Source: Escherichia phage JEP6. From it: a stretch of DNA of 64,000 bases. Under the pieces are notes generated by a model, which was not told the DNA's origin, ran no database searches, and saw nothing but the letters and a program-made list of their open reading frames with translations. Shown here one piece after another: positions 4,982 to 47,091 of this stretch; position 1 is the first letter of the stretch; every line of letters starts with the position of its first letter. The DNA lies in sequence record MT764206.1. One strand, 5' to 3'. The translations under genes and the position numbers were made by a program.

Positions 4982-5214
4982 AGTACGCCATACACCCTTT
5001 GTGCTTCAACTAATCCATCAAAATCCAGTTTAAGATGCGATATTTGATCGCCATCACCTGGATTCACAATTACTAATACTGAACGAGGAGTTTCGGTAAT
5101 AACACGAACCGATGTTTCAGGAAATCGTTCAGAAACCTTATTTACTAATTCCTGTGCAAATAGTTTAACTTTTTCTTGGAATTCTTTAACAGTAATTGGT
5201 TTTTCACTTAGCAT
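4978..5214 (-). CDS. hypothetical protein
   Basis: 78-aa ORF. Confidence 0.5.
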   Translation of the reverse strand: MLSEKPITVKEFQEKVKLFAQELVNKVSERFPETSVRVITETPRSVLVIVNPGDGDQISHLKLDFDGLVEAQRVYGVL

Positions 5215-10392: not shown

Positions 10393-11571
10393 TTAAAAGT
10401 ATTTTTTAAAACTCATCATAACTTTATCATCAACATCATTATCAATCTGTGCAACAAGGTAAGATGACAGTTCTACTTCTTGCGGCGCGGATTGAACATT
10501 ATCAGAATTAAGGTATTCACGAATCCAAGGATATGGATGTTTAACCGGAGCATCGGTAATTGGGCATGGAAGACCACACTGTTTCATACGAGATACAGTT
10601 AAGTAATCAATAAAGCTCCACATGCTATTTGTATTTAATCCAGGAACATCACCATCTTTAAATAAATGAACCGCCCAGTCTTTTTCTTGGCGGTTAACTT
10701 CCATGAAAATATCAACTGCTTCTTGTTCACACTCTTGAGCAATTTTAACCCATTCATCACCATCAGTGCCAAGTTGAAGTTGACGAATAATATATTGGGT
10801 GCCTTTAAGGTGAAGTTGCTCATCACGAGCAATGAACTTCATAATCTTGGCATTACCTTCCATGATTTCCATGTTCTTATGGAAGTTAAAGGTACATGCG
10901 AAAGATACATAAAAACGAATAGCTTCCAATGCGTTGATTACGTGCAGGCAGAGGTAAAGAGATTTCATTAGTGCTCGTTTAGCTTCGGCTTCTTGTTTAA
11001 TAGCTCGATTTAAACGAAAAACAGCATCAGGAGATTCTTTAGCTAGTTCTGTAAATTCTTTAGCATTTTCCCATTCACGGGTTTTAGTCAGAACATCATC
11101 ATAATAGCGACCGATAGATTCAGCACGTTTCATAATATCTTCATCTAATACAATCTCATCAAATACCTTTGACGGATCAGTATAAAGATTTCGCATGATA
11201 TGGGTATATGAACGGCTGTGAATAGTTTCACTAAAAGTCCATGTAGCAACCCATGTATCAAGACTTGGGTCTGAAATTAATGACATAAGTACAGCAGATG
11301 GCGCACGACCCTGAATGCTATCTAGAAGTGATTGATACTTCAGATTATTAGTAAAAATATCTTGCTGATATTGAGGAAGCTTGTTAAATTGTGCAGCATC
11401 CATCATTAAGTTTACTTCTTCAGGACGCCAGAAAAATGATAAAGATTTCTCAATAAGTTCTTCAAATACTCTATGCCGTTGAATATCATATCGAGCTAAA
11501 CCCAATCCAGAACCAAAAAACATCGGCTCAGTCAAAATATTAACAGGGGATGTATTAAAAACTGTACTCAT
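10393..11571 (-). CDS. nrdB: ribonucleotide reductase small subunit (uninterrupted)
   Basis: 392-aa continuous ORF with recognisable NrdB sequence; no intron. Confidence 0.9.
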   Translation of the reverse strand: MSTVFNTSPVNILTEPMFFGSGLGLARYDIQRHRVFEELIEKSLSFFWRPEEVNLMMDAAQFNKLPQYQQDIFTNNLKYQSLLDSIQGRAPSAVLMSLISDPSLDTWVATWTFSETIHSRSYTHIMRNLYTDPSKVFDEIVLDEDIMKRAESIGRYYDDVLTKTREWENAKEFTELAKESPDAVFRLNRAIKQEAEAKRALMKSLYLCLHVINALEAIRFYVSFACTFNFHKNMEIMEGNAKIMKFIARDEQLHLKGTQYIIRQLQLGTDGDEWVKIAQECEQEAVDIFMEVNRQEKDWAVHLFKDGDVPGLNTNSMWSFIDYLTVSRMKQCGLPCPITDAPVKHPYPWIREYLNSDNVQSAPQEVELSSYLVAQIDNDVDDKVMMSFKKYF

Positions 11572-12209
11572 TTAGAATCCTTAAATTTACATTTATCATA
11601 ATGCCATCTTAGAGCATTGCCTTTATTAACTTTCTTGCCACAATGCGGACAAGGCGGATACTCTATACTTTGCTTAGTTCTCAAAGAAATCAAATCACGA
11701 GTTTCTTTAGTATGAGGAACATCTCTTGTCGGAGAGATTGTACCATACATTGGATTAAGCACGCCGACTTTAGCAGCAGCTATATTCTTTTTAGCTTCTT
11801 CGGTTTTAGGTTTTCTCATGCGAGCTAAATGCTCTTTGGTAAATTTCCTTCCTTTAAGAGCTCTACTTATCTTTTCCCTGGTTTCTATAGAAACTTCACG
11901 TCCTATAGCAGCTTCAGATAAACGTCGTCTACCTAATTCGTATAGTTGAGAAGAAATTTTATATGAGCGATTTTTACCAGTCAAGCACATTAAACCAAAA
12001 GCTTTCTTTAATCCTGGGGTGTCATATATTTTGCATAAAAGCCAATGAGCTATAAAATGCTCTCTACCTGTTAATTCAACTAAATTTTCTTTATCATCAG
12101 AACCTCCCATGCATCTAGGGATTATATGATGAGTCTCTTTATATCCTAATAAAGGTTCCCGAGCCTGAGCTCGGGAAATTAGGTCGTTATAGATTTTTTG
12201 ATAATTCAT
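11568..12209 (-). CDS. mobE: HNH homing endonuclease, Mob family
   Basis: HHIIPRCMGGSDDKENLV HNH motif; position between nrdA and nrdB. Confidence 0.75.
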   Translation of the reverse strand: MNYQKIYNDLISRAQAREPLLGYKETHHIIPRCMGGSDDKENLVELTGREHFIAHWLLCKIYDTPGLKKAFGLMCLTGKNRSYKISSQLYELGRRRLSEAAIGREVSIETREKISRALKGRKFTKEHLARMRKPKTEEAKKNIAAAKVGVLNPMYGTISPTRDVPHTKETRDLISLRTKQSIEYPPCPHCGKKVNKGNALRWHYDKCKFKDSK

Positions 12210-14473
12210 TACAATTTACACGCTGCACAATCGTCGGCTTTTGGAGTTTCTATTTCATAATCATCAGTACCGGAACCATCGCGGGTATTATGATAATAGA
12301 AATTTTTAATGCCATAATACCATCCGTATAGCATATCATCAATCATTATTGACATTGGAACCTTTCCTTTTGGAAAAATCTGCGGGTCATAATATGTATT
12401 TGCTGAAGCTGATTGACATACCCATTTAAGCATAATAGCTACTTGCGTAAGATAAGGTTTATTACCTTTCTTAGCTAATTTCCACGTATAATCATAGAGG
12501 TCTATGTTATGCTCAATATTGGGCACGACTTGATTAAAGGAACCCTCTTTTGATTCTTTAACAGAGACTGGTCCACGTGGAGGCTCGATACCGTTTGTAC
12601 TGTTAGAAACTTGGGAAGATGACTCACATGGCATAAGTGCTGATAATGTGCTATTACGGATGCCAAAGAGCTTAAGGTCTTCCCGCAGCGACGACCAGTC
12701 ACAAACGTATTTTGGAGCTGCGATTTGGTCAATCTTTTTATTGTACCAGTCGATAGGTAATTCGCCTCGAGACCAACGAGTGTCTGAATAATATTCGCAA
12801 GGTCCTTTTTCTTTGGCGAGCTTAATGGATGCTTTAATGAGTCCATACTGTAGTCTCTCAAATAGTTCATGTGTTAAATCGTTAGCATCTTCATAAGAAG
12901 CAAAGTTACTTGCCAGCCAAGCTGCATAGTTGGTAACACCTACACCGAGGTTACGACGCTTTTTAGCTTTTTCTGCTTCAGGAACTGGATATCCTTGGTA
13001 GTCCAAAAGATTATCAAGAGCGCGAACTTGAACTTCTGCTAATTCATTGATTTTATCTTGGTCTTGCCAATCGAAGTTATCCAACACAAATGCGCTAAGG
13101 GTACACAATCCAATTTCAGCATCAGGGCTATTCACATCATTTGTTGGAATAGCAATTTCACAGCACAAGTTACTCTGACGAATAGGTGCCTTTTCACGAA
13201 TAAACGGAGTATAGTTATTCGTATTATCAATGAACTGTACATAAATCCTTGCTGTCCCTGAACGTTCAGTCATGAGCAATTCAAATAGTTCACGGGCTTT
13301 AATACGCTTTTTACGAATATTAGGGTCTTTTTCTGCTGCTTCGTATAATTCACGGAAACGGTCTTGGTCTTTAAAATAAGAATAATAAAGCTCGCCACCC
13401 ATTTCGTGTGGACTGAACAAAGTAATGTAGTCGTTCTTTCCAAAACGTTCCATCATCAAATCATTCAGTTGAACGCCATAATCCATATGACGGATACGGT
13501 TTTCTTCTACGCCTTTGTTATTTTTCAAAACGAGAAGATTTTCAACTTCCAAATGCCAAATAGGATAATAAGCAGTAGCAGCGCCGCCACGAATTCCACC
13601 CTGTGAGCATGATTTAACAGCAGTCTGAAAATGTTTCCAAAAAGGAATAACACCAGTATGGCGTACTTCACCCATGCCAATCTTAGAACCTTCGGCACGA
13701 ATCATACCAACGTTAATACCAATTCCAGCGCGTTTAGAGATATATTCAACAATTGAAGCGGAAGCCTTATTGATAGACTTCAGCGAATCACCTGCTTCAA
13801 TAACAACGCATGAACTAAACTGTCGAGTTGGAGTACGACATCCAGCCATAATAGGAGTTGGCAATGAAATCTGTCGAGTGGATACTGCTTCATAAAAACG
13901 GATAACATGTTTTAATCTATCAACAGGTTCATCTTGATGCAGTGCCATTCCAATAGTCATAAATGCAAACTGCGGAGTTTCATAAATTTGACCAGTGGTT
14001 TTATCTTTAACTAGATATTTTTCTTTTAATTGCATCGCCCCGGAATAAGTAAATTCCATATCCCGCTCGTGCTTAATTTTTGATTCTAAAAATGTAATTT
14101 CTTCTGCTGAATATTTTGACAACAATTCAGGGTCATATTTACCTTCATTTACACAATAAGAAATATGGTCAATAAATGAACGTGGTTCATACTGCCCATA
14201 AACATGCTTACGAAGAGCGAACATTAAACAGCGAGCGGCTACATATTGGTAATCAGGCTCTTCAACCGAAATAGAATTCGCAGCAGCCTTAATGACAATA
14301 GTCTGAATATCATCAGTTGTCATTCCATCACGGAGATAAGATTTAATATTTTCATATAATTCATAAGGATCTACTGATGTTCCTTCAGCTGCCCAAGATA
14401 AAACTTTAATAATTTTTTGCGGGTCAAAGCTCTGAGAAACACCACTACTTTTGATAACATTAATTAATTGCAT
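12209..14473 (-). CDS. nrdA: ribonucleotide reductase large subunit
   Basis: 754 aa; recognisable class I RNR alpha sequence. Confidence 0.9.
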   Translation of the reverse strand: MQLINVIKSSGVSQSFDPQKIIKVLSWAAEGTSVDPYELYENIKSYLRDGMTTDDIQTIVIKAAANSISVEEPDYQYVAARCLMFALRKHVYGQYEPRSFIDHISYCVNEGKYDPELLSKYSAEEITFLESKIKHERDMEFTYSGAMQLKEKYLVKDKTTGQIYETPQFAFMTIGMALHQDEPVDRLKHVIRFYEAVSTRQISLPTPIMAGCRTPTRQFSSCVVIEAGDSLKSINKASASIVEYISKRAGIGINVGMIRAEGSKIGMGEVRHTGVIPFWKHFQTAVKSCSQGGIRGGAATAYYPIWHLEVENLLVLKNNKGVEENRIRHMDYGVQLNDLMMERFGKNDYITLFSPHEMGGELYYSYFKDQDRFRELYEAAEKDPNIRKKRIKARELFELLMTERSGTARIYVQFIDNTNNYTPFIREKAPIRQSNLCCEIAIPTNDVNSPDAEIGLCTLSAFVLDNFDWQDQDKINELAEVQVRALDNLLDYQGYPVPEAEKAKKRRNLGVGVTNYAAWLASNFASYEDANDLTHELFERLQYGLIKASIKLAKEKGPCEYYSDTRWSRGELPIDWYNKKIDQIAAPKYVCDWSSLREDLKLFGIRNSTLSALMPCESSSQVSNSTNGIEPPRGPVSVKESKEGSFNQVVPNIEHNIDLYDYTWKLAKKGNKPYLTQVAIMLKWVCQSASANTYYDPQIFPKGKVPMSIMIDDMLYGWYYGIKNFYYHNTRDGSGTDDYEIETPKADDCAACKL

Positions 14474-14789
14474 AAGTCCTCAACTTGAAAATCGTCTTTA
14501 AACAATCGGTTAACTATATGAGCTATTATATCACCATGACACGGCTTTGGTTTACATGTGCATCCTAGCCTCATTCCACGTAAAGGCTCTAAATGTGCTT
14601 TAGTTATTTCTCCGGATTTAATTCGACGTATAAAATCTTTTTTGAATAATTCAATGGCAGCCTCCCGGCTGCCAGCATCTTTACCGACGTAAAGACTCTA
14701 AATGTACCACGGTGAATATTAACATCAAAGTCGGATTTGTATTTATTCACTACCCGGCATAGACGGCCCGCGCGGTTGTAGGTGTTCAT
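14464..14789 (-). pseudogene. frame-disrupted ORF (candidate DUF4326-like) between td and nrdA
   Basis: 61-aa ORF (14604..14789) plus a second frame running 14464..14700 ending 7 nt past the nrdA ATG and containing a CxCxPxPCHGD motif but no start codon before 14578; 17-bp near-perfect direct repeat at 14688-14704 and 14579-14595. Confidence 0.35.
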
Positions 14790-15006
14790 ATTGTTCTTCC
14801 GTTAAAACAGTAATATCATAGTAACAGTCAGAAGAAGTTTTAACTGTGGAAATTTTATTATCAAAATACTCACGAGTCATTTTATGAGTATAATATTTTT
14901 TGCCATAAATGATAATAGGCTGATTTGGTCCTGGAACTTCTAACTCACTTGGATTAGGAAGTGTAAAAAGAACTACACCAGAAGTATCTTTAAATCGTAA
15001 AATCAT
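14743..15006 (-). CDS. hypothetical protein
   Basis: ORF track 14743..15018; start at ATG preceded by GAGGA. Confidence 0.5.
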
Positions 15007-15029
15007 ATATCCTCGCAATTAAATTAAAA

Positions 15030-15341
15030 TTATACCGCCATCTTTCCTTTAATTGGCGGGTGAGATACATAGTTGTTAAGAACAAAATTATGCGGCTTTG
15101 CGAATTGACTCAACCAAAATACCTGCGATTCTGTGTCCCATTCATCAAATTCATCTGGAAATTTTAATTGCAATTCGCATAAATCCATAGGTTCACGACG
15201 TAAAATTTCTTTACATTGTTCTACGTGATTCATATAGATATGAGTATTACCGCCAGAAAATATCAAATCTCCTGGAATAAGATTACACATCTTAGCTACA
15301 ATATGAACTAATGCAGCATATGATGCAATGTTGAACGGTAG
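15030..15341 (-). CDS. td: thymidylate synthase, exon 2
   Basis: Begins CTACCGTTC (LPFNIASYA) immediately after intron-terminal ATG; C-terminal TS sequence. Confidence 0.85.
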   Translation of the reverse strand, partial: LPFNIASYAALVHIVAKMCNLIPGDLIFSGGNTHIYMNHVEQCKEILRREPMDLCELQLKFPDEFDEWDTESQVFWLSQFAKPHNFVLNNYVSHPPIKGKMAV

Positions 15342-16357
15342 CATTATGTTCAGATAAGGTCGTTAATCTTACCCCGGAATTATATCCAGCTGCATGTCAC
15401 CATGCAGATCAGACTATATCTCCAACTTGTTAAAGCAAGTTGTCTATCGTTTCGAGTCACTTGACCCTACTCCCCAAAGGGATAGTCGTTAGGCATTTAT
15501 GTAGAACCAATTCCATTTATCAGATTTTACACGATAAGTAACTAATCCAGACGAAATTTTAAAATGTCTAGCTGCATCTGCTGCACAATCAAAAATAACC
15601 CCATCACATGAAATCTTTTTAATATTACTAGGCTTTTTACCTTTCATCTTTTCTGATATTTTAGATTTAGTTATGTCTGAATGCTTATGATTAAAGAATG
15701 AATTATTTTCACCTGAACGATTTCTGCATTTACTACAAGTATAAGCAGAAGTTTGTATGCGAACACCGCACTTACAAAACTTATGGGTTTCTGGATTCCA
15801 ACGCCCGTTTTTACTTCCGGGTTTACTGTAAAGAGCTTTCCGACCATCAGGTCCAAGTTTAAGCATCTTAGCTTTAACAGTTTCAGAACGTTTCTTAATA
15901 ATTTCTTCTTTTAATGGATGCGTAGAACATGTATCACCAAACGTTGCGTCAGCAATATTGTATCCATTAATTTTAGAATTAAGCTCTTTAATCCAAAAAT
16001 TTTCTCGTTCAATAATCAAATCTTTCTCATATGGAATTTCTTCCAAAATAGAACATTCAAACACATTACCATGTTTGTTAAAAGACCTCTGAAGCTTTAT
16101 AGAAGAATGGCATCCTTTTTCTAAATCTTTAAAATGCCTCTTCCATCTCTTTTCAAAATCTTTAGCACTTCCTACATATACTTTATTGTTTAAAGTATTT
16201 TTAATCTGATAAATTCCGCTTTTCATAAATACCTCTTTAAATATAGAAGTATTTATTAAAGGGCAGTCCTACAATTTAGCACGGGATTGTCTACTAGAGA
16301 GGTTCCCCGTTTAGATAGATTACAAGTATAAGTCACCTTATACTCAGGCCTCAATTA
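15342..16357 (-). mobile_element. group I self-splicing intron in td (1016 nt)
   Basis: Exon 1 ends GTTTTCTTGGGT followed by TAATTGAGGCCTGAGTATAAGGTGACTTATAC; intron ends ...ATG before exon 2; length 1016 nt matches the T4 td intron. Confidence 0.85.
15489..16226 (-). CDS. I-TevI: GIY-YIG homing endonuclease I-TevI (intron-encoded)
   Basis: 245 aa; GIYQIKN...KVYVGSA GIY-YIG motif; wholly inside td intron. Confidence 0.9.
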   Translation of the reverse strand: MKSGIYQIKNTLNNKVYVGSAKDFEKRWKRHFKDLEKGCHSSIKLQRSFNKHGNVFECSILEEIPYEKDLIIERENFWIKELNSKINGYNIADATFGDTCSTHPLKEEIIKKRSETVKAKMLKLGPDGRKALYSKPGSKNGRWNPETHKFCKCGVRIQTSAYTCSKCRNRSGENNSFFNHKHSDITKSKISEKMKGKKPSNIKKISCDGVIFDCAADAARHFKISSGLVTYRVKSDKWNWFYINA

Positions 16358-17729
<1,372 letters not shown>

Positions 17730-41455: not shown

Positions 41456-43633
41456 TTAGGCCGCAAGGGCCTTCATAGTTTTAGCGATTTGGGAAACTTC
41501 ATCATCACTTAAAGAGTTGCGATAACCGATGAAGTCGGAAACAATACGGAATTTCTTGGTAAACTCAGCAACCATTTTATCACTGTTTTTTGAAGCATTA
41601 TTTGATAATACATCAAAAAGATTAGTTACTGTCCAGATGTCATGACCGATGGTATCTTTTCCACCGTTGAAATATACACCCTGTAATGAACTAACCATAT
41701 TAGCGAGTCGTGTATATTCTTCAGAAACTTCATCTACACTGAAGTACTTCATCATAAAATCTAGCTCAGGATACTTGATAATTTTATCAATATATCGTTT
41801 AGCTGAACTTGAATAACCTACATACTTATCATAATCTACATCATCAAAAGCATCTACATATAAATCACGCAGAGTTTCAAAAATACATTGGCACTGACCG
41901 AGTTCTTTTACCTTTTTCTGTAAAAGCGGACGAATAACATAAAATTCATTAATGCCAATAAGATTAGCCATACGAATCAAAATATTCATAGATGGATGAC
42001 AAAGCGATGTAGTACCATCCATAGAGAAAATATCAGAACGATGCATATACGCTACATAACCAGTAATTTCATCTGCTTCTGACGTAAGTGTAAACAGTTC
42101 CTCTTTTTCCCAGCGCCCATCTTTAATTTCAAACTTAAATGCTGTAGCAGCTTTAGGACGAGGAGCTTTACTTTTTACTGCCTTTGGAATATAACTTTTA
42201 ACTAAAGCTTCAATTTCTGACAAATAATGAATGTTAACTTCATCATTTTCAAACATTGCCATAATATCAGGGAGTAAATCAATCTGTGATTCTACTTCCG
42301 GATTAATAAACAGAAGACGTTCGTTATGATGAATATTCAGAGTGTTATTAAATTCACTATCATCTAATGCACGTGCTAATCCACGAACAATATTAACACG
42401 ATTTTTAATATTATCAATAACGACATTAATTTTTGTTGTATTAATACCAAACAGACGATAACTTGATGCGACGGCTGAAGTTTCATGACTTTGCTTAATG
42501 CGTTTCAGTCGAGGGTCAAGATTTACTTCATACACAACCCCTGCATTGCATAACTTACTGTCAGGTTCAAACATGCTCTGCATCTTTTTATATGACAGAT
42601 TTTTAGTCGTGAATTTGACTGAATTACTAATCATATAATCTCGAGCAGAATACCCCATCTTCATCAATTCACGGTATGTGTGACGAGGAGATGTAGATTC
42701 TTTAAATCGTTTTACATCTTCATTAAATGCTTTCTCACTAAGCTCTTTAACACGCTCAATAATATTTTTACGGGTACGATCATCTAGTGAAAGAGCTTCA
42801 CGTGATGGAGCAATATCAAGTGAACCCATTGGAAACTTAATGTAATTCACTTCATTGCGAATGCTTAACCAGTTACGGTCTCTAATAACACCATCGATAG
42901 GATAAACGATACCGCCGTAGATAGCATACAATCCACCACGATCTGGCCAGTATCTTTCTGGATTTACGCCGTAATAATCATCAAAATCCGGAAAATAATC
43001 AATTTCGCGGTCAAGACCATTAATGATAGCCAAATCTTTGAATGGTCGCATGATATAAGAAACTTCATAAGCAAAGTTTCTAAAGTCTTTTTCTTCAACT
43101 GGAACTACGATTTCAATACCAGTTTTATCGTCTGGACCCATTTCTTTCACGAATGTAGGTTTAATTTGTGGACCATCGCCATCCATGTAAGCTACATAAC
43201 CACGAATTTCACCTTTATGATACGAAGTAATACTAAATGTATCAGTATAACTAAACGGAGATTTAGAACCTAAACCAAATCCGCCAATGAAATCGTTAGA
43301 TTCAGCTTTAGATGAACTGAAGTATGAATTATACAACCCAGGAGAATTATCATCACCCTGAATATCAAAATCACTCATACCCGGACCAAAATCTCGACAA
43401 ACAAATCGTGGGTCTAAACGTCCTGGAACTTGTATGATAAATTTTTCAGGATTTCCATTGAGAGCATGGGCATCAATCATGTTAGTAATCAATTCACGGA
43501 CTACTGCGCGAATCTTGTTTGTATACAAATCAGATGATAGAATTTTAAATACTTTAGGAGATGCTGTGATGCTAAATGCTTTTGATTTAGAACCATTACC
43601 AAGAATTGTTTCTTTTTCAGTGGTGATAATCAT
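41456..43633 (-). CDS. rIIA: rIIA protein
   Basis: 725 aa. Confidence 0.9.
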
Positions 43634-43643
43634 AATTTCCTCA

Positions 43644-43847
43644 TTAATTCATATTGCGTTTAATAACTTCAGCAACTTCTAGTAGTTCATCTTTAGTTGC
43701 GGTGTCGGATTGAATTTTATCTCTAATATCCTTAAAGCGGTTTTTAAATTCTTCGGCTTCTCCCATATCGAAAAAGCGTTGAATGATTCTATATTCTCGA
43801 TGAACTGCTTTATCAAAAAGTTCTAAATTTACTCTATATGATTTCAT
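43644..43847 (-). CDS. hypothetical protein (rIIA.1-like)
   Basis: 67-aa ORF. Confidence 0.5.
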
Positions 43848-43869
43848 TTCAATATCCTCATTTGCCCAA

Positions 43870-43904
43870 TTAATTATACCACATCCTTGTGGTAAAGTAA
43901 ACTA
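43870..43904 (-). promoter_or_regulatory. early promoter for rIIA region, overlapping 3' end of gene 60
   Basis: GTTTAC ... TGGTATAATTA. Confidence 0.5.
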
Positions 43905-44246
43905 CTGGCTCATCCATTCTTTACGAAGGTCAGCATTATCTCCCATGAGCATTTCAAAAAGCTCTTTCCAGTTCTCAGGAAGTTTAACAACATCATAAAC
44001 TGGGTTCTGAATCATTTCACGGTATTCAGATTTTTCCAAAGAGCCAAGTCCCTTAATATAACGGATGCTATGTTTAGGTAGAGCATCTTTGGCACTCTCA
44101 TATTCAGCGACTGTATAAAACCATTCTTGTTTTTTACCGACCTGAGCGATGATTACAGGAGTTTTGACAAAGCGAATTCTTCCTTGTTCAAACAGTTCTG
44201 GCCAATTACTAAAAAATCCGAGCAGAGAAGGATAAATAGAACCTAA
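43902..44246 (-). CDS. 60: topoisomerase II small subunit gp60, segment after translational bypass (codons 47-160)
   Basis: Frame resumes with TTA GGT (LGSIYPSL...) after landing GGA; ends ...KEWMSQ TAG. Confidence 0.85.
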   Translation of the reverse strand, partial: LGSIYPSLLGFFSNWPELFEQGRIRFVKTPVIIAQVGKKQEWFYTVAEYESAKDALPKHSIRYIKGLGSLEKSEYREMIQNPVYDVVKLPENWKELFEMLMGDNADLRKEWMSQ

Positions 44247-44296
44247 TCCAATAATCTCTTAATTATGAGGTATTTCAATGGATAGCCCGAAGGCTA
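44247..44296 (-). other. 60: 50-nt translational bypass coding gap of gene 60
   Basis: Take-off GGA 44297-44299, TAG 44294-44296, hairpin CCTTCGGGCTATCC at 44281-44293, landing GGA 44247-44249. Confidence 0.85.
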
Positions 44297-44434
44297 TCCA
44301 TCGTGATCTGCGTCTGTCATAATAGCGACATTCGCATAGTTCATTGAAGAGGATTTAATAGAACGACGAACATTGTTCTGCGATTTATATTTTTTCATAT
44401 CAATGCTAGAAGAATCAATTTTTACAAATTTCAT
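44297..44434 (-). CDS. 60: gp60 segment before bypass (codons 1-46)
   Basis: MKFVKIDSSS...TDADHDG ending at take-off Gly46. Confidence 0.85.
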
Positions 44435-45233
44435 TATACACCTCGTAGAACTTTTCATCAGGAATCCAGCCGCGTTTAAATTCATTAAATGCTCGGCCGA
44501 ATAATTTTGAATTCACAGTTATATTATTAACTGATTTCCATTTAGCAACTCCCGTTCGTTTATAATGATCGGGGTCATATTTCGTGACGTACCATTCATA
44601 TAAATTTGGTATTAATTTTACAGCCTCTGGATTTGTCGCTGATTTATTATACCATGGTTTCGCTTTTTCAAGTTCAGCTGCTTTTGCAGTAGCAGCAACA
44701 GTATTTCCAATACCAACTAATTTTTCAGCTTTAATGCGTGGATCATTAACATGAAGACGAAAAACTTCGCCTTTTTCATTTTTAAAGCATGTCATGCCTT
44801 TAATTCCAGGAAGCTTAACACCTTTATTAACACCGCACCATTCCTTTGGGTTAAATGATCCTTTAATTAATAAGGCGCATTTACCCGATTTAATACTTCT
44901 CATTAAAACTTTATCTTTCATAAAGTTTTTTGACCATTCAGATACTGCTCTTTGATGGTAAATTCTAGCAATTTCATATAATTTACTAGAACGTAAATAT
45001 TTTTCAGTGTTTAACATTCTATTCATCGCATATGCCATTTCACGATTACGATGAATTTTATATAGTAGAAAATGTGCTAAAAAGTGTTCACGAAAAGTCA
45101 GTTTCACCAAATTTTCTTTATCATCAGAACCTCCCATTGATCTTGGAAGGATATGGTGAATTTCACCCTTAAATTTAGAAACGCGGGTTTTACCCCGCAC
45201 TATTAAGTCATTATAGATTTTTTCGTAATTCAC
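44415..45233 (-). CDS. mobA: HNH homing endonuclease, Mob family
   Basis: 272 aa; HHILPRSMGGSDDKENLV motif shared with mobE; wedged between genes 39 and 60 with short overlaps. Confidence 0.75.
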   Translation of the reverse strand: MNYEKIYNDLIVRGKTRVSKFKGEIHHILPRSMGGSDDKENLVKLTFREHFLAHFLLYKIHRNREMAYAMNRMLNTEKYLRSSKLYEIARIYHQRAVSEWSKNFMKDKVLMRSIKSGKCALLIKGSFNPKEWCGVNKGVKLPGIKGMTCFKNEKGEVFRLHVNDPRIKAEKLVGIGNTVAATAKAAELEKAKPWYNKSATNPEAVKLIPNLYEWYVTKYDPDHYKRTGVAKWKSVNNITVNSKLFGRAFNEFKRGWIPDEKFYEVYNEICKN

Positions 45234-46761
45234 CTACTGTTATCCATTTACCATTAATCTGTACTTCATCATTTTCATTTACAATAATTGTATCACCATT
45301 TAGTTCGAGAGTAAACCACTCACCGTCTTCTTTTTCTTCAAACGCCTTTTCACCAAGAACTAATCCAGTGATTGCGCAAATATCAAACAGTTCTTTGTTT
45401 TTAAGCATGTCAGCATATGACATACCCCAGCTATTAAGAACTTTACCGCGCAATGGATAACCACCATGAAGTTCTTTATCGCGAACATCAATAAGATATC
45501 CGATAGCAGAATCACCCTCAGTCAAGAAAAGAGTAGTGTCAGCATCTTTACCGCAAAGATTCGCTTTAATATGTTTATGAACCTTAGCTTTAGAAGCCTT
45601 TTTAGCTGCTTTAGTTTCTGCTGCTTTTTCTGCCGCCAATTTACGAGCCAAAGCAGCTTCAATAATTGGCATTAAAATTGCTTCATTATTTAAAATAGCA
45701 CGTGAAATCTTTTTAGCATCAAGCTGAATATGACTACGGATTTCACCAAATGGAGAAGTCAAACGCTCTTTAGTTTGAGAATCAAATCGCATGTTTTTCA
45801 TATCACGAACAAACATAACGATAGTCAAACATTCTTTGACACGTGCTTTAGTTACATCAATTTTGAACTTACGTTTGATTTGTGGAATAAGGTCTTCACA
45901 AATATCATCCATAACACAGTCAATGTGATGACCACCATTCTTAGTATGAATGTTATTGACGTACGTTAATTGACGAAAACCATCCGGTGAACGACCAACC
46001 GCAATAGAACAGTTTTCTTGTTCTTGAACGATGGCGTGTTCATCATATTGGCGTGCATATTTCTTAAAATTACCCTGAACCTTTTTACCATTAAAGGTAA
46101 ATTGAATATCAGGATAAACTACTGCAAGTGTCTGGAGACGATCTAGTGTAATGTCAAGATAAACTTGGGACAGCTCATTAGTTTCAAATGACATAAAATC
46201 AGGAATGAAAGTAACACGAGTTCCTTTCCATTTTCCAGGAATAGTTTCCCATGATTTATTTTCCATGCCATTTGAACAACGAACTACAATATTATTTTGA
46301 CCATCACCAGTTTCACCGACAAACATCACAGAAAAAATGTTTGTCAAACTAGAACCAACACCATTCATACCGCCGGTGACGCGTTCTTTATCATCACCGA
46401 AGTTACCACCTGCTTTTGGAATAGTCCACGCAGCAACAGGACCAGGAATTTCTTCACCGGTAGGTGTTTTAACCATCGCTTGTGGAATACCACGACCGTT
46501 ATCTTCAACTGTTACCTGATTATTTTTAATGGTAACATTAATTTTATTTGCGAATTTAAACTTAGTACGAATACCTTCATCTACTGAGTTATCGATAATT
46601 TCATCAATAAGCTTAACAAGACCAGGTACATACTGAACACTTTCCCATTTACCAAACAGAAAGCGCTCATGCATTTCATTAGCAGAAGAGCCAATGTACA
46701 TGCCGCTACGCTTTTTGATATGTTCAATATCGCTCAGAATTTTAATTTCATTCTTAATCAT
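45211..46761 (-). CDS. 39: topoisomerase II large subunit gp39 (GyrB-like ATPase)
   Basis: 516 aa from second Met. Confidence 0.9.
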   Translation of the reverse strand: MIKNEIKILSDIEHIKKRSGMYIGSSANEMHERFLFGKWESVQYVPGLVKLIDEIIDNSVDEGIRTKFKFANKINVTIKNNQVTVEDNGRGIPQAMVKTPTGEEIPGPVAAWTIPKAGGNFGDDKERVTGGMNGVGSSLTNIFSVMFVGETGDGQNNIVVRCSNGMENKSWETIPGKWKGTRVTFIPDFMSFETNELSQVYLDITLDRLQTLAVVYPDIQFTFNGKKVQGNFKKYARQYDEHAIVQEQENCSIAVGRSPDGFRQLTYVNNIHTKNGGHHIDCVMDDICEDLIPQIKRKFKIDVTKARVKECLTIVMFVRDMKNMRFDSQTKERLTSPFGEIRSHIQLDAKKISRAILNNEAILMPIIEAALARKLAAEKAAETKAAKKASKAKVHKHIKANLCGKDADTTLFLTEGDSAIGYLIDVRDKELHGGYPLRGKVLNSWGMSYADMLKNKELFDICAITGLVLGEKAFEEKEDGEWFTLELNGDTIIVNENDEVQINGKWITVGELRKNL

Positions 46762-46830
46762 CACTTATCCTCGTTTGGTTTCGGGAATATTATACTCCGG
46801 TAATCATAAAGCTAAAGGCCCGAAGGCCTT

Positions 46831-47091
46831 TTATTTAAAACGAATAGTCGAATCCTTGAAGAATAGTCCAGAACATACTGTTCCTTCTACTTTCTGCCCA
46901 GTAGGTCCAACAGCACGAAATCCAGTGTGTTGGAAATCATTTTCAGAGCAACCGAACCAGTTATATCCAGTGATTTCAATATTAGTAAAACCACTTGAAG
47001 ACAAAACTTTGGTTGCATTATCAGCATCAGTACATCCTACTAAAGACACTGCTAATACTAATGCTGCGATAGAACGATTAACATATTTCAT
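46831..47091 (-). CDS. putative lipoprotein
   Basis: Signal peptide with LVGC lipobox. Confidence 0.5.
   Translation of the reverse strand: MKYVNRSIAALVLAVSLVGCTDADNATKVLSSSGFTNIEITGYNWFGCSENDFQHTGFRAVGPTGQKVEGTVCSGLFFKDSTIRFK

Follow-up and report, generated by a model that had tools for sequence, protein, structure and literature searches.

The stretch of Escherichia phage JEP6 DNA considered here (64,000 nucleotides of sequence record MT764206.1; hereafter the window) carries on its minus strand an open reading frame of 272 codons, mobA, which lies between gene 39 and gene 60, with rIIA.1 and rIIA close by (Table 1). The mobA frame opens with GTG at 45233-45231 and cannot be extended upstream, because an in-frame TAG immediately precedes this codon. 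It differs from the frames of both neighbours and overlaps each of them by about the 20 nt given in an earlier sequence-only reading: by 23 nt at the end of gene 39, the TAA of which is at 45211-45213, and by 20 nt at the beginning of gene 60 (ATG at 44434, mobA end at 44415). In the T4T record the corresponding 819-nt CDS is annotated as 'mobA: homing endonuclease'. For gene 39, the list of open reading frames gives a GTG start at 46764 (517 codons, 45211-46764), but the start is most likely the ATG at 46761, one codon later, since residue 1 of the T2 protein aligns with residue 2 of the window ORF, and T4T has an annotated CDS of 1551 nt.

Table 1. Genes and sequence elements in and around the mobA locus, and other features of the window referred to in the text
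Feature	Position	Strand	Remarks
mobA, HNH homing (nicking) endonuclease	44415-45233	minus	272 aa; GTG start, TGA stop at 44415-44417; ORF listing
gene 39, N-terminal part of topoisomerase II large subunit	45211-46761	minus	516 aa; HATPase_c, DNA_gyraseB
gp39 C-terminal extension (CTE)	45214-45342	minus	43 aa, FEEKEDGEWFTLELNGDTIIVNENDEVQINGKWITVGELRKNL; absent from T2 gp39
Whole MobA mobile element	44238-45343	minus	1106 nt, absent from T2; MAFFT alignment (window, ELT1, T4 reference, T2)
gene 60, first coding segment	44297-44434	minus	46 codons; ends with take-off GGA, 44297-44299
gene 60 unique N-terminal extension (NTE)	codons 1-30 of first segment	minus	
homR, copy of the replaced target sequence carried by the element	44297-44344	minus	codons 31-46; compared with T2
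5' stem-loop upstream of take-off hairpin	44309-44336	minus	MFE and centroid of 171-nt fold
Take-off stem-loop	44276-44303	minus	CC-UUCG-GG hairpin, 12 contiguous bp, UUCG tetraloop; includes take-off GGA and UAG
Coding gap	44247-44296	minus	50 nt; read from sequence; absent from T2
UAG stop after take-off GGA	44294-44296	minus	read from sequence
GAG mini-Shine-Dalgarno	44256-44258	minus	six bases before landing codon; read from sequence
Landing GGA	44247-44249	minus	read from sequence
gene 60, second coding segment	43902-44246	minus	114 codons and TAG stop; resumes at UUA, 44244-44246
rIIA.1	43644-43847	minus	ORF listing around mobA
rIIA	41456-43633	minus	ORF listing around mobA
mobE, paralogous HNH homing endonuclease	11568-12209	minus	213 aa; between nrdA and nrdB, outside the mobA cassette; HNH and NUMOD3
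td exon 1 ORF	16355-16906	minus	
I-TevI, inside td intron	15489-16226	minus	245 aa
td exon 2 ORF	15030-15344	minus	

Reading of the sequence 5' of the mobA GUG revealed no well-spaced Shine-Dalgarno sequence. A consensus scan of 43600-47000 for promoters and terminators gave seven promoter-like sites (13.7 in shuffled sequence), none of them convincing for mobA, which fits the description of mobA as a promoter-less cassette with a predicted GUG start by Edgell et al. (2010), who also noted that its 23-bp overlap with gene 39 might permit low-level re-initiation.

MobA can be assigned to the HNH endonucleases on several grounds. Its score against the Pfam HNH family (PF01844) is 20.1 bits, slightly below the 21.4-bit gathering score (the paralogue MobE, at 23.1 bits, is above it), and residues 1-265 match PHROG 655, 'homing endonuclease', with an E-value of 2.5e-57, there being also a strong match to PHROG 12434 (these two groups comprise homing / HNH endonucleases). 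The best match among PDB sequences is to the HNH domain of a group II intron maturase (aligned stretch EIHHILPRSMGGSDDKENLV, in which the motif is quoted as EIHHILPKHKGGSDDLDNLV). The corresponding MobA motif, EIHHILPRSMGGSDDKENLVKLTFREHFLAH, holds H26-H27, N41 and H50, as well as H54. In an alignment of 11 full-length homologues N41, H50 and H54 never vary, and H26/H27 are missing solely from one N-terminally truncated sequence. These homologues came from a large protein search, in which ten sequences showed 48-99% identity over 88-100% of the query and one showed 30%; the remaining matches covered only its first 22-64%, the coverage being under 55% in nearly all of them. An AlphaFold2 model (mean pLDDT 79, pTM 0.38) contains the expected ββα core, as strands at residues 25-27 and 42-44 followed by a helix (47-61), pLDDT there being 75-84, and fold searches returned only weak matches to HNH-containing proteins (IscB, Cas8-HNH). 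The earlier identification of an HNH endonuclease is therefore upheld by the Pfam, PHROG and maturase matches, and HNH and homing-endonuclease families are indeed what the database searches recovered. Neither Pfam nor the fold searches found a recognisable domain or structural relative for the C-terminal two-thirds of MobA, which is presumably the DNA-binding part. Intron-encoded nicking endonucleases of the I-HmuI type also have an HNH motif, and likewise promote homing by single-strand nicking (Edgell et al., 2010), although MobA is not intron-encoded; no match between MobA and enzymes of this type was recovered in the PDB sequence or fold searches.

Could mobA nevertheless be a decaying, inactive passenger, and the cassette a fossil that no longer moves? 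The T4 records NC_000866 and AF158101 annotate a 114-nt 'defective' mobA plus an ORF 60.1, MobA has been pseudogenised or lost in some lineages (Manning & Atkins, 2022), and the GUG is preceded by a poor ribosome-binding site. Against this, the window ORF is unbroken over its 272 codons, the catalytic residues are conserved in the 11-homologue alignment, and MobA differs from that of T4T at a single residue (271/272 identical; T169A). At the DNA level mobA does not differ from that of pSe_SNUABM_01 (100% identity), and its identity to the other carriers compared is 99.4-99.9%. The 11 additional bases by which the ORF of the T4 reference is interrupted are confined, among the T4 records listed, to that record and its RefSeq copy. 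We therefore regard decay as very improbable here.

The annotation of this locus in other records calls for comment. In the T4 reference (NC_000866.4 / AF158101.6, locus 1066-1884), mobA has 11 extra single bases compared with the window, ELT1 and T4T, and the other T4 records listed match over 2951 nt where the reference matches over 2962. It is these bases that gave rise to the annotation of a defective mobA and ORF 60.1, and their pattern suggests old sequencing errors more than a decaying gene. In the records of ELT1 and pSe_SNUABM_01, gene 60 has been called as two small CDSs with no bypass join, and in the latter mobA has been cut to an internal ATG (723 nt), so that the two catalytic-motif histidines are lost. 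Gene callers routinely overlook the join in gene 60 and start mobA too late, at an internal ATG; the practical value of the window lies in annotation.

The genes on either side of mobA together correspond to one gene of phage T2 (AP018813), which at the corresponding locus has a single gene for a 605-aa protein. The window gp39 is identical to residues 1-473 of the T2 protein at 471 of 473 positions, and the break in the window falls after residue 473. When the two segments of gene 60 are joined across the gap (44434-44297 + 44246-43902), they specify a protein of 160 aa that matches TOPRIM_C and agrees with T2 residues 472-605 at 128 of 134 positions. At the DNA level, identity to T2 ends after window position 45344 and resumes at 44237, with about 70 aligned but diverged bases in between, from which it follows that the insert occupies about 44238-45343 (1106 nt). 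It is made up of the gp39 C-terminal extension (its codons and the gp39 stop being 45211-45342), mobA, the gene 60 NTE with homR, the 50-nt gap, and a further 9 nt, which are the first nine of the second gene 60 segment (44238-44246). The homR portion (SSMNYANVAIMTDADHDG region) is a diverged copy of the T2 sequence 'LNYHNIAIMTDADHDG', and over the NTE and gap T2 has the same base at 38 of 55 aligned positions (69%). This comparison of the 39/60 junction with phages having an intact gene 39, which the sequence-only reading had proposed as a check, gave clean junctions with T2. It sustains both the claim that mobA interrupts the gene for the topoisomerase large subunit (a single fused gene in T2 and RB14) and the claim that mobA and the bypass element form one mobile unit, since the single 1106-nt insert relative to T2 holds both. 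Manning & Atkins (2022) placed the insertion in the Toprim region, near residues 466-473 of the fused protein, and described an element of 1097-1106 nt with a CTE of about 44 aa, an NTE of 44-46 aa that includes homR and, in clade 1, 9 extra nucleotides. The window cassette agrees with this layout in its length of 1106 nt, the 43-aa CTE, the 46-codon N-terminal segment of gene 60 and the out-of-frame overlaps of mobA.

Other homing endonucleases of T4 sit in group I introns, and the window itself has a td intron with I-TevI, so it might be supposed that the interruption in the topoisomerase gene is resolved by splicing, either of a group I intron or of an intein housing the endonuclease. The structure of the locus, however, makes this next to impossible: the gp39 frame is closed by a stop codon and gene 60 opens with an ATG of its own, mobA is read in a frame different from those of its two neighbours, Pfam gives no Hint or intein signal in the CTE, the NTE or gp39, and the literature describes two separate polypeptides and a bypass. 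There was also no Rfam match in the window, which is weak evidence, as the same search missed the td intron. The CTE showed nothing but noise among Pfam domains at E<=10, and the idea that the two extensions derive from a split intein was rejected, with no Hint signal in Pfam at E <= 10.

The td gene, at 15030-16906 on the minus strand, is split by a group I intron with I-TevI. Its intron gave no Rfam match, either at gathering thresholds over the whole window or at E <= 0.1 over 14400-17000, and a probable explanation is the large ORF that it contains.

The cassette is sporadically distributed at a fixed site. Of about 540 related phage records in GenBank, only 41 carry it (or more exactly the bypass region plus NTE). 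The host part of gene 39 is present to 80% or more in 515 phage records, so that the 41 carriers are to be set against about 500 related records that lack the cassette. A query of 241 nt across the 3' junction was matched in full by 41 records, and among the matches listed, element-free records aligned only to its positions 1-38/39, which correspond to 44200-44237/8, at the 3' edge of the insert. Identity to ELT1, HY01 and pSe_SNUABM_01 is 99.6-99.8% for the cassette, 97.3-98.7% for the host part of gene 39 and 96.1-99.4% for that of gene 60. This greater uniformity of the cassette than of its flanks is expected of a mobile unit, and indicates recent insertion. The host part of gene 39 in the cassette-free RB14 is, at 97.9%, as near to that of the window as are those of most carriers. 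These observations also bear on the idea that the two-gene state is ancestral, and that in T2-like phages genes 39 and 60 became fused only later, once an endonuclease gene between them had been lost. A secondary re-fusion has been described in one clade of Aeromonas phages (Manning & Atkins, 2022), but for the phages considered here such a history seems extremely unlikely: the single gene is found in about 500 related records and the split one in 41, neither DNA nor protein alignment reveals a remnant of CTE or NTE in T2, the cassette holds its own diverged copy of the target (the 69% match to T2 across NTE and gap), and its uniformity points to recent arrival.

Among programmed recoding events in translation, the hop in T4 gene 60 is the classic extreme. 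The window gap aligns with the annotated 'non-coding translational bypass region' of T4, T4T and HY01, and everything that marks gaps of the cassette class is present: matched take-off and landing codons, a stop codon, the CC-UUCG-GG stem-loop, and a mini-Shine-Dalgarno sequence, which lies 5-7 nt before the landing site in the class and 6 nt before it in the window. The 28-nt take-off stem-loop folds with -20.2 kcal/mol (z -7.85), compared with -14.7 kcal/mol for the T4 version, and is kept in the centroid of a 171-nt fold; the stem-loop upstream of it matches the position of the 5' SL described in T4. In its insertion site and 1106-nt layout the window cassette is identical to that of T4 and T4T ('clade 1' of Manning & Atkins, 2022; Bonocora et al., 2011, PNAS 108:16351), with which it also shares the GTG start, the overlaps and the GGA, UAG, UUCG-hairpin, GAG and GGA signals. 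It differs from T4 at two residues of the NTE (V11I and L18S) and at two bases of the gap, where CUAUAG in T4 is CCAUUG in the window. The latter change converts a G-U and a G·A into a G-C and a G-U, resulting in 12 contiguous pairs, and eliminates the second in-frame UAG of T4. A 73-nt gap query was 100% identical in HY01, PEC04, pSe_SNUABM_01 and ELT1, most other carriers having the T4 form; and because HY01 is the worked example of Manning & Atkins (2022), this gap variant is already within the published set. From the identity of the signals to those of T4 and HY01, we infer that ribosomes in JEP6 would bypass the gap and yield full-length gp60. It is possible, though on present evidence rather doubtful, that the HY01-type variant, with a hairpin stronger by about 5.5 kcal/mol, no second UAG, and the V11I and L18S replacements, bypasses with measurably different efficiency or fidelity from the T4 sequence, with which all the mechanistic studies were done. 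A scan of IMG/VR with the full degenerate coding-gap pattern gave no matches, and one with the 19-nt hairpin core gave four, all of them unrelated terminator-like hairpins after another gene. The lack of any Rfam family match in the window is uninformative about the bypass element, for which no match to any family was found.

Taken together, these results leave us highly confident that 44415-45233 is mobA, the endonuclease gene of a T4-type MobA homing cassette with ribosome bypass; at the level of sequence, nothing opposes such a reading. The cassette sits in the Toprim-coding part of an otherwise single topoisomerase II large-subunit gene, turning it into gene 39 and gene 60. It supplies gp39 with a 43-aa tail and a stop codon, and gp60 with a new start and 46 codons, including the diverged target copy homR, and places a 50-nt insert between two GGA codons. 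With no promoter of its own, mobA would probably be translated at a low level from the GUG 23 nt inside the end of gene 39. During mixed infection with a phage that lacks the cassette, T2 for instance, MobA would nick the uninterrupted gene 39 of that phage, and recombinational repair off the cassette-bearing genome would copy the whole unit into the nicked one. The carrier, as judged from the literature, would be protected because the 50-nt insert interrupts the MobA recognition site, and the insert would be tolerated because ribosomes bypass it and make full gp60. They would leave at GGA-UAG, helped by the nascent peptide and the UUCG hairpin, and land on the second GGA, helped by the GAG six bases upstream of it, to complete the protein. 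The linkage to mobA offers an explanation for the very existence of the gene 60 hop, in that the insert gives a selfish endonuclease immunity to its own cutting.

The mechanism in this scheme is that given in the literature. In the account of Manning & Atkins (2022) that cites Bonocora et al. (2011), MobA is active, and T2 acquires through mixed infection the split as well as the 50-nt insert; nicking takes place inside homR, and the bypass insert, some 20 bases downstream of the nick site, protects the carrier. MobA was also described by Edgell et al. (2010) as nicking one strand and being inherited at high frequency. Site-specific nicking and super-Mendelian inheritance have been reported for T4-type MobA, and are predicted for the JEP6 enzyme. 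The cassette in the window is real and intact, and has already been described (Edgell et al., 2010; Bonocora et al., 2011; Manning & Atkins, 2022), the gap and mobA sequences being identical to deposited ones. The window adds no new biology: it has one more intact copy of a cassette known in about 40 phage records.

A second member of the Mob family, mobE, is present elsewhere in the window, and tblastn searches of the whole window with MobA and MobE found precisely these two copies, as the sequence-only reading had anticipated. That reading had also taken their N-termini to be near-identical, which overstated the relationship. In pairwise alignment (blastp) the HNH-bearing N-terminal regions are clearly homologous, with 55% identity over the first 94 aa (E 8e-28), 40 identities in the first 60 aligned positions (67%), and the blocks MNY.KIYNDLI and MGGSDDKENLV in common, but they are not near-identical, and beyond residue 95 or so the proteins are unrelated. 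MobA thus fits the general layout of T-even Mob proteins, a homologous N-terminal HNH domain being combined with a distinct C-terminal region. In T4, MobE is a free-standing HNH endonuclease encoded between nrdA and nrdB (Wilson & Edgell, 2009, PMC2790892), with an N-terminal HNH region homologous to MobA; like MobA, it is a member of PHROG 655 and a promoter-less insertion overlapping the upstream gene, and the review of Edgell et al. (2010) lists both as nicking enzymes. The C-terminal part of MobE has NUMOD3, whereas that of MobA has none and is unrelated; and MobE sits intergenically, in contrast to MobA, which sits inside a gene and so needs the CTE and NTE tails and the bypass insert.

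The nrdB gene of the window is one uninterrupted ORF of 392 codons (10393-11571, minus strand). T4 nrdB carries a group I intron with a defunct I-TevIII, so that in JEP6 mobE appears to be present while nrdB lacks its intron. At 12209 the ATG of mobE and the stop codon of nrdA share one base, which is the UAAUGA arrangement described by Edgell et al. (2010).

A close parallel in another gene is the mobE of phage Aeh1, which splits nrdA (Friedrich et al., 2007; Crona et al., 2011, PMC3045599). There too, an HNH mob gene interrupts the gene for an essential enzyme, and element-derived tails help both halves to assemble, as in the MobA cassette, but the host gene is a different one and there is no translational bypass element.

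Finally, we draw attention to two distant MobA homologues (56% and 30% identity), found on contigs in which genes are arranged as in the window: a gyrB-N gene, MobA, an ORF of 45-46 codons, and TOPRIM_C. One of the two loci has a clear 50-nt gap, from GGG to GGA. The 30%-identical homologue, encoded by a 188-kb contig (ENA ERZ27284606, contig k119_179272), also has the split-topoisomerase layout, and there (4984-5040) the sequence after '...MTDADVD' reads GAU UAG GUUAGCUUGAC GGC GUU GGC UCC AUA UAU CCA. This suggests a putative hop of just 14 nt, from GAU to GAC, which would be shorter than the 20-nt minimum gap mentioned by Manning & Atkins (2022).
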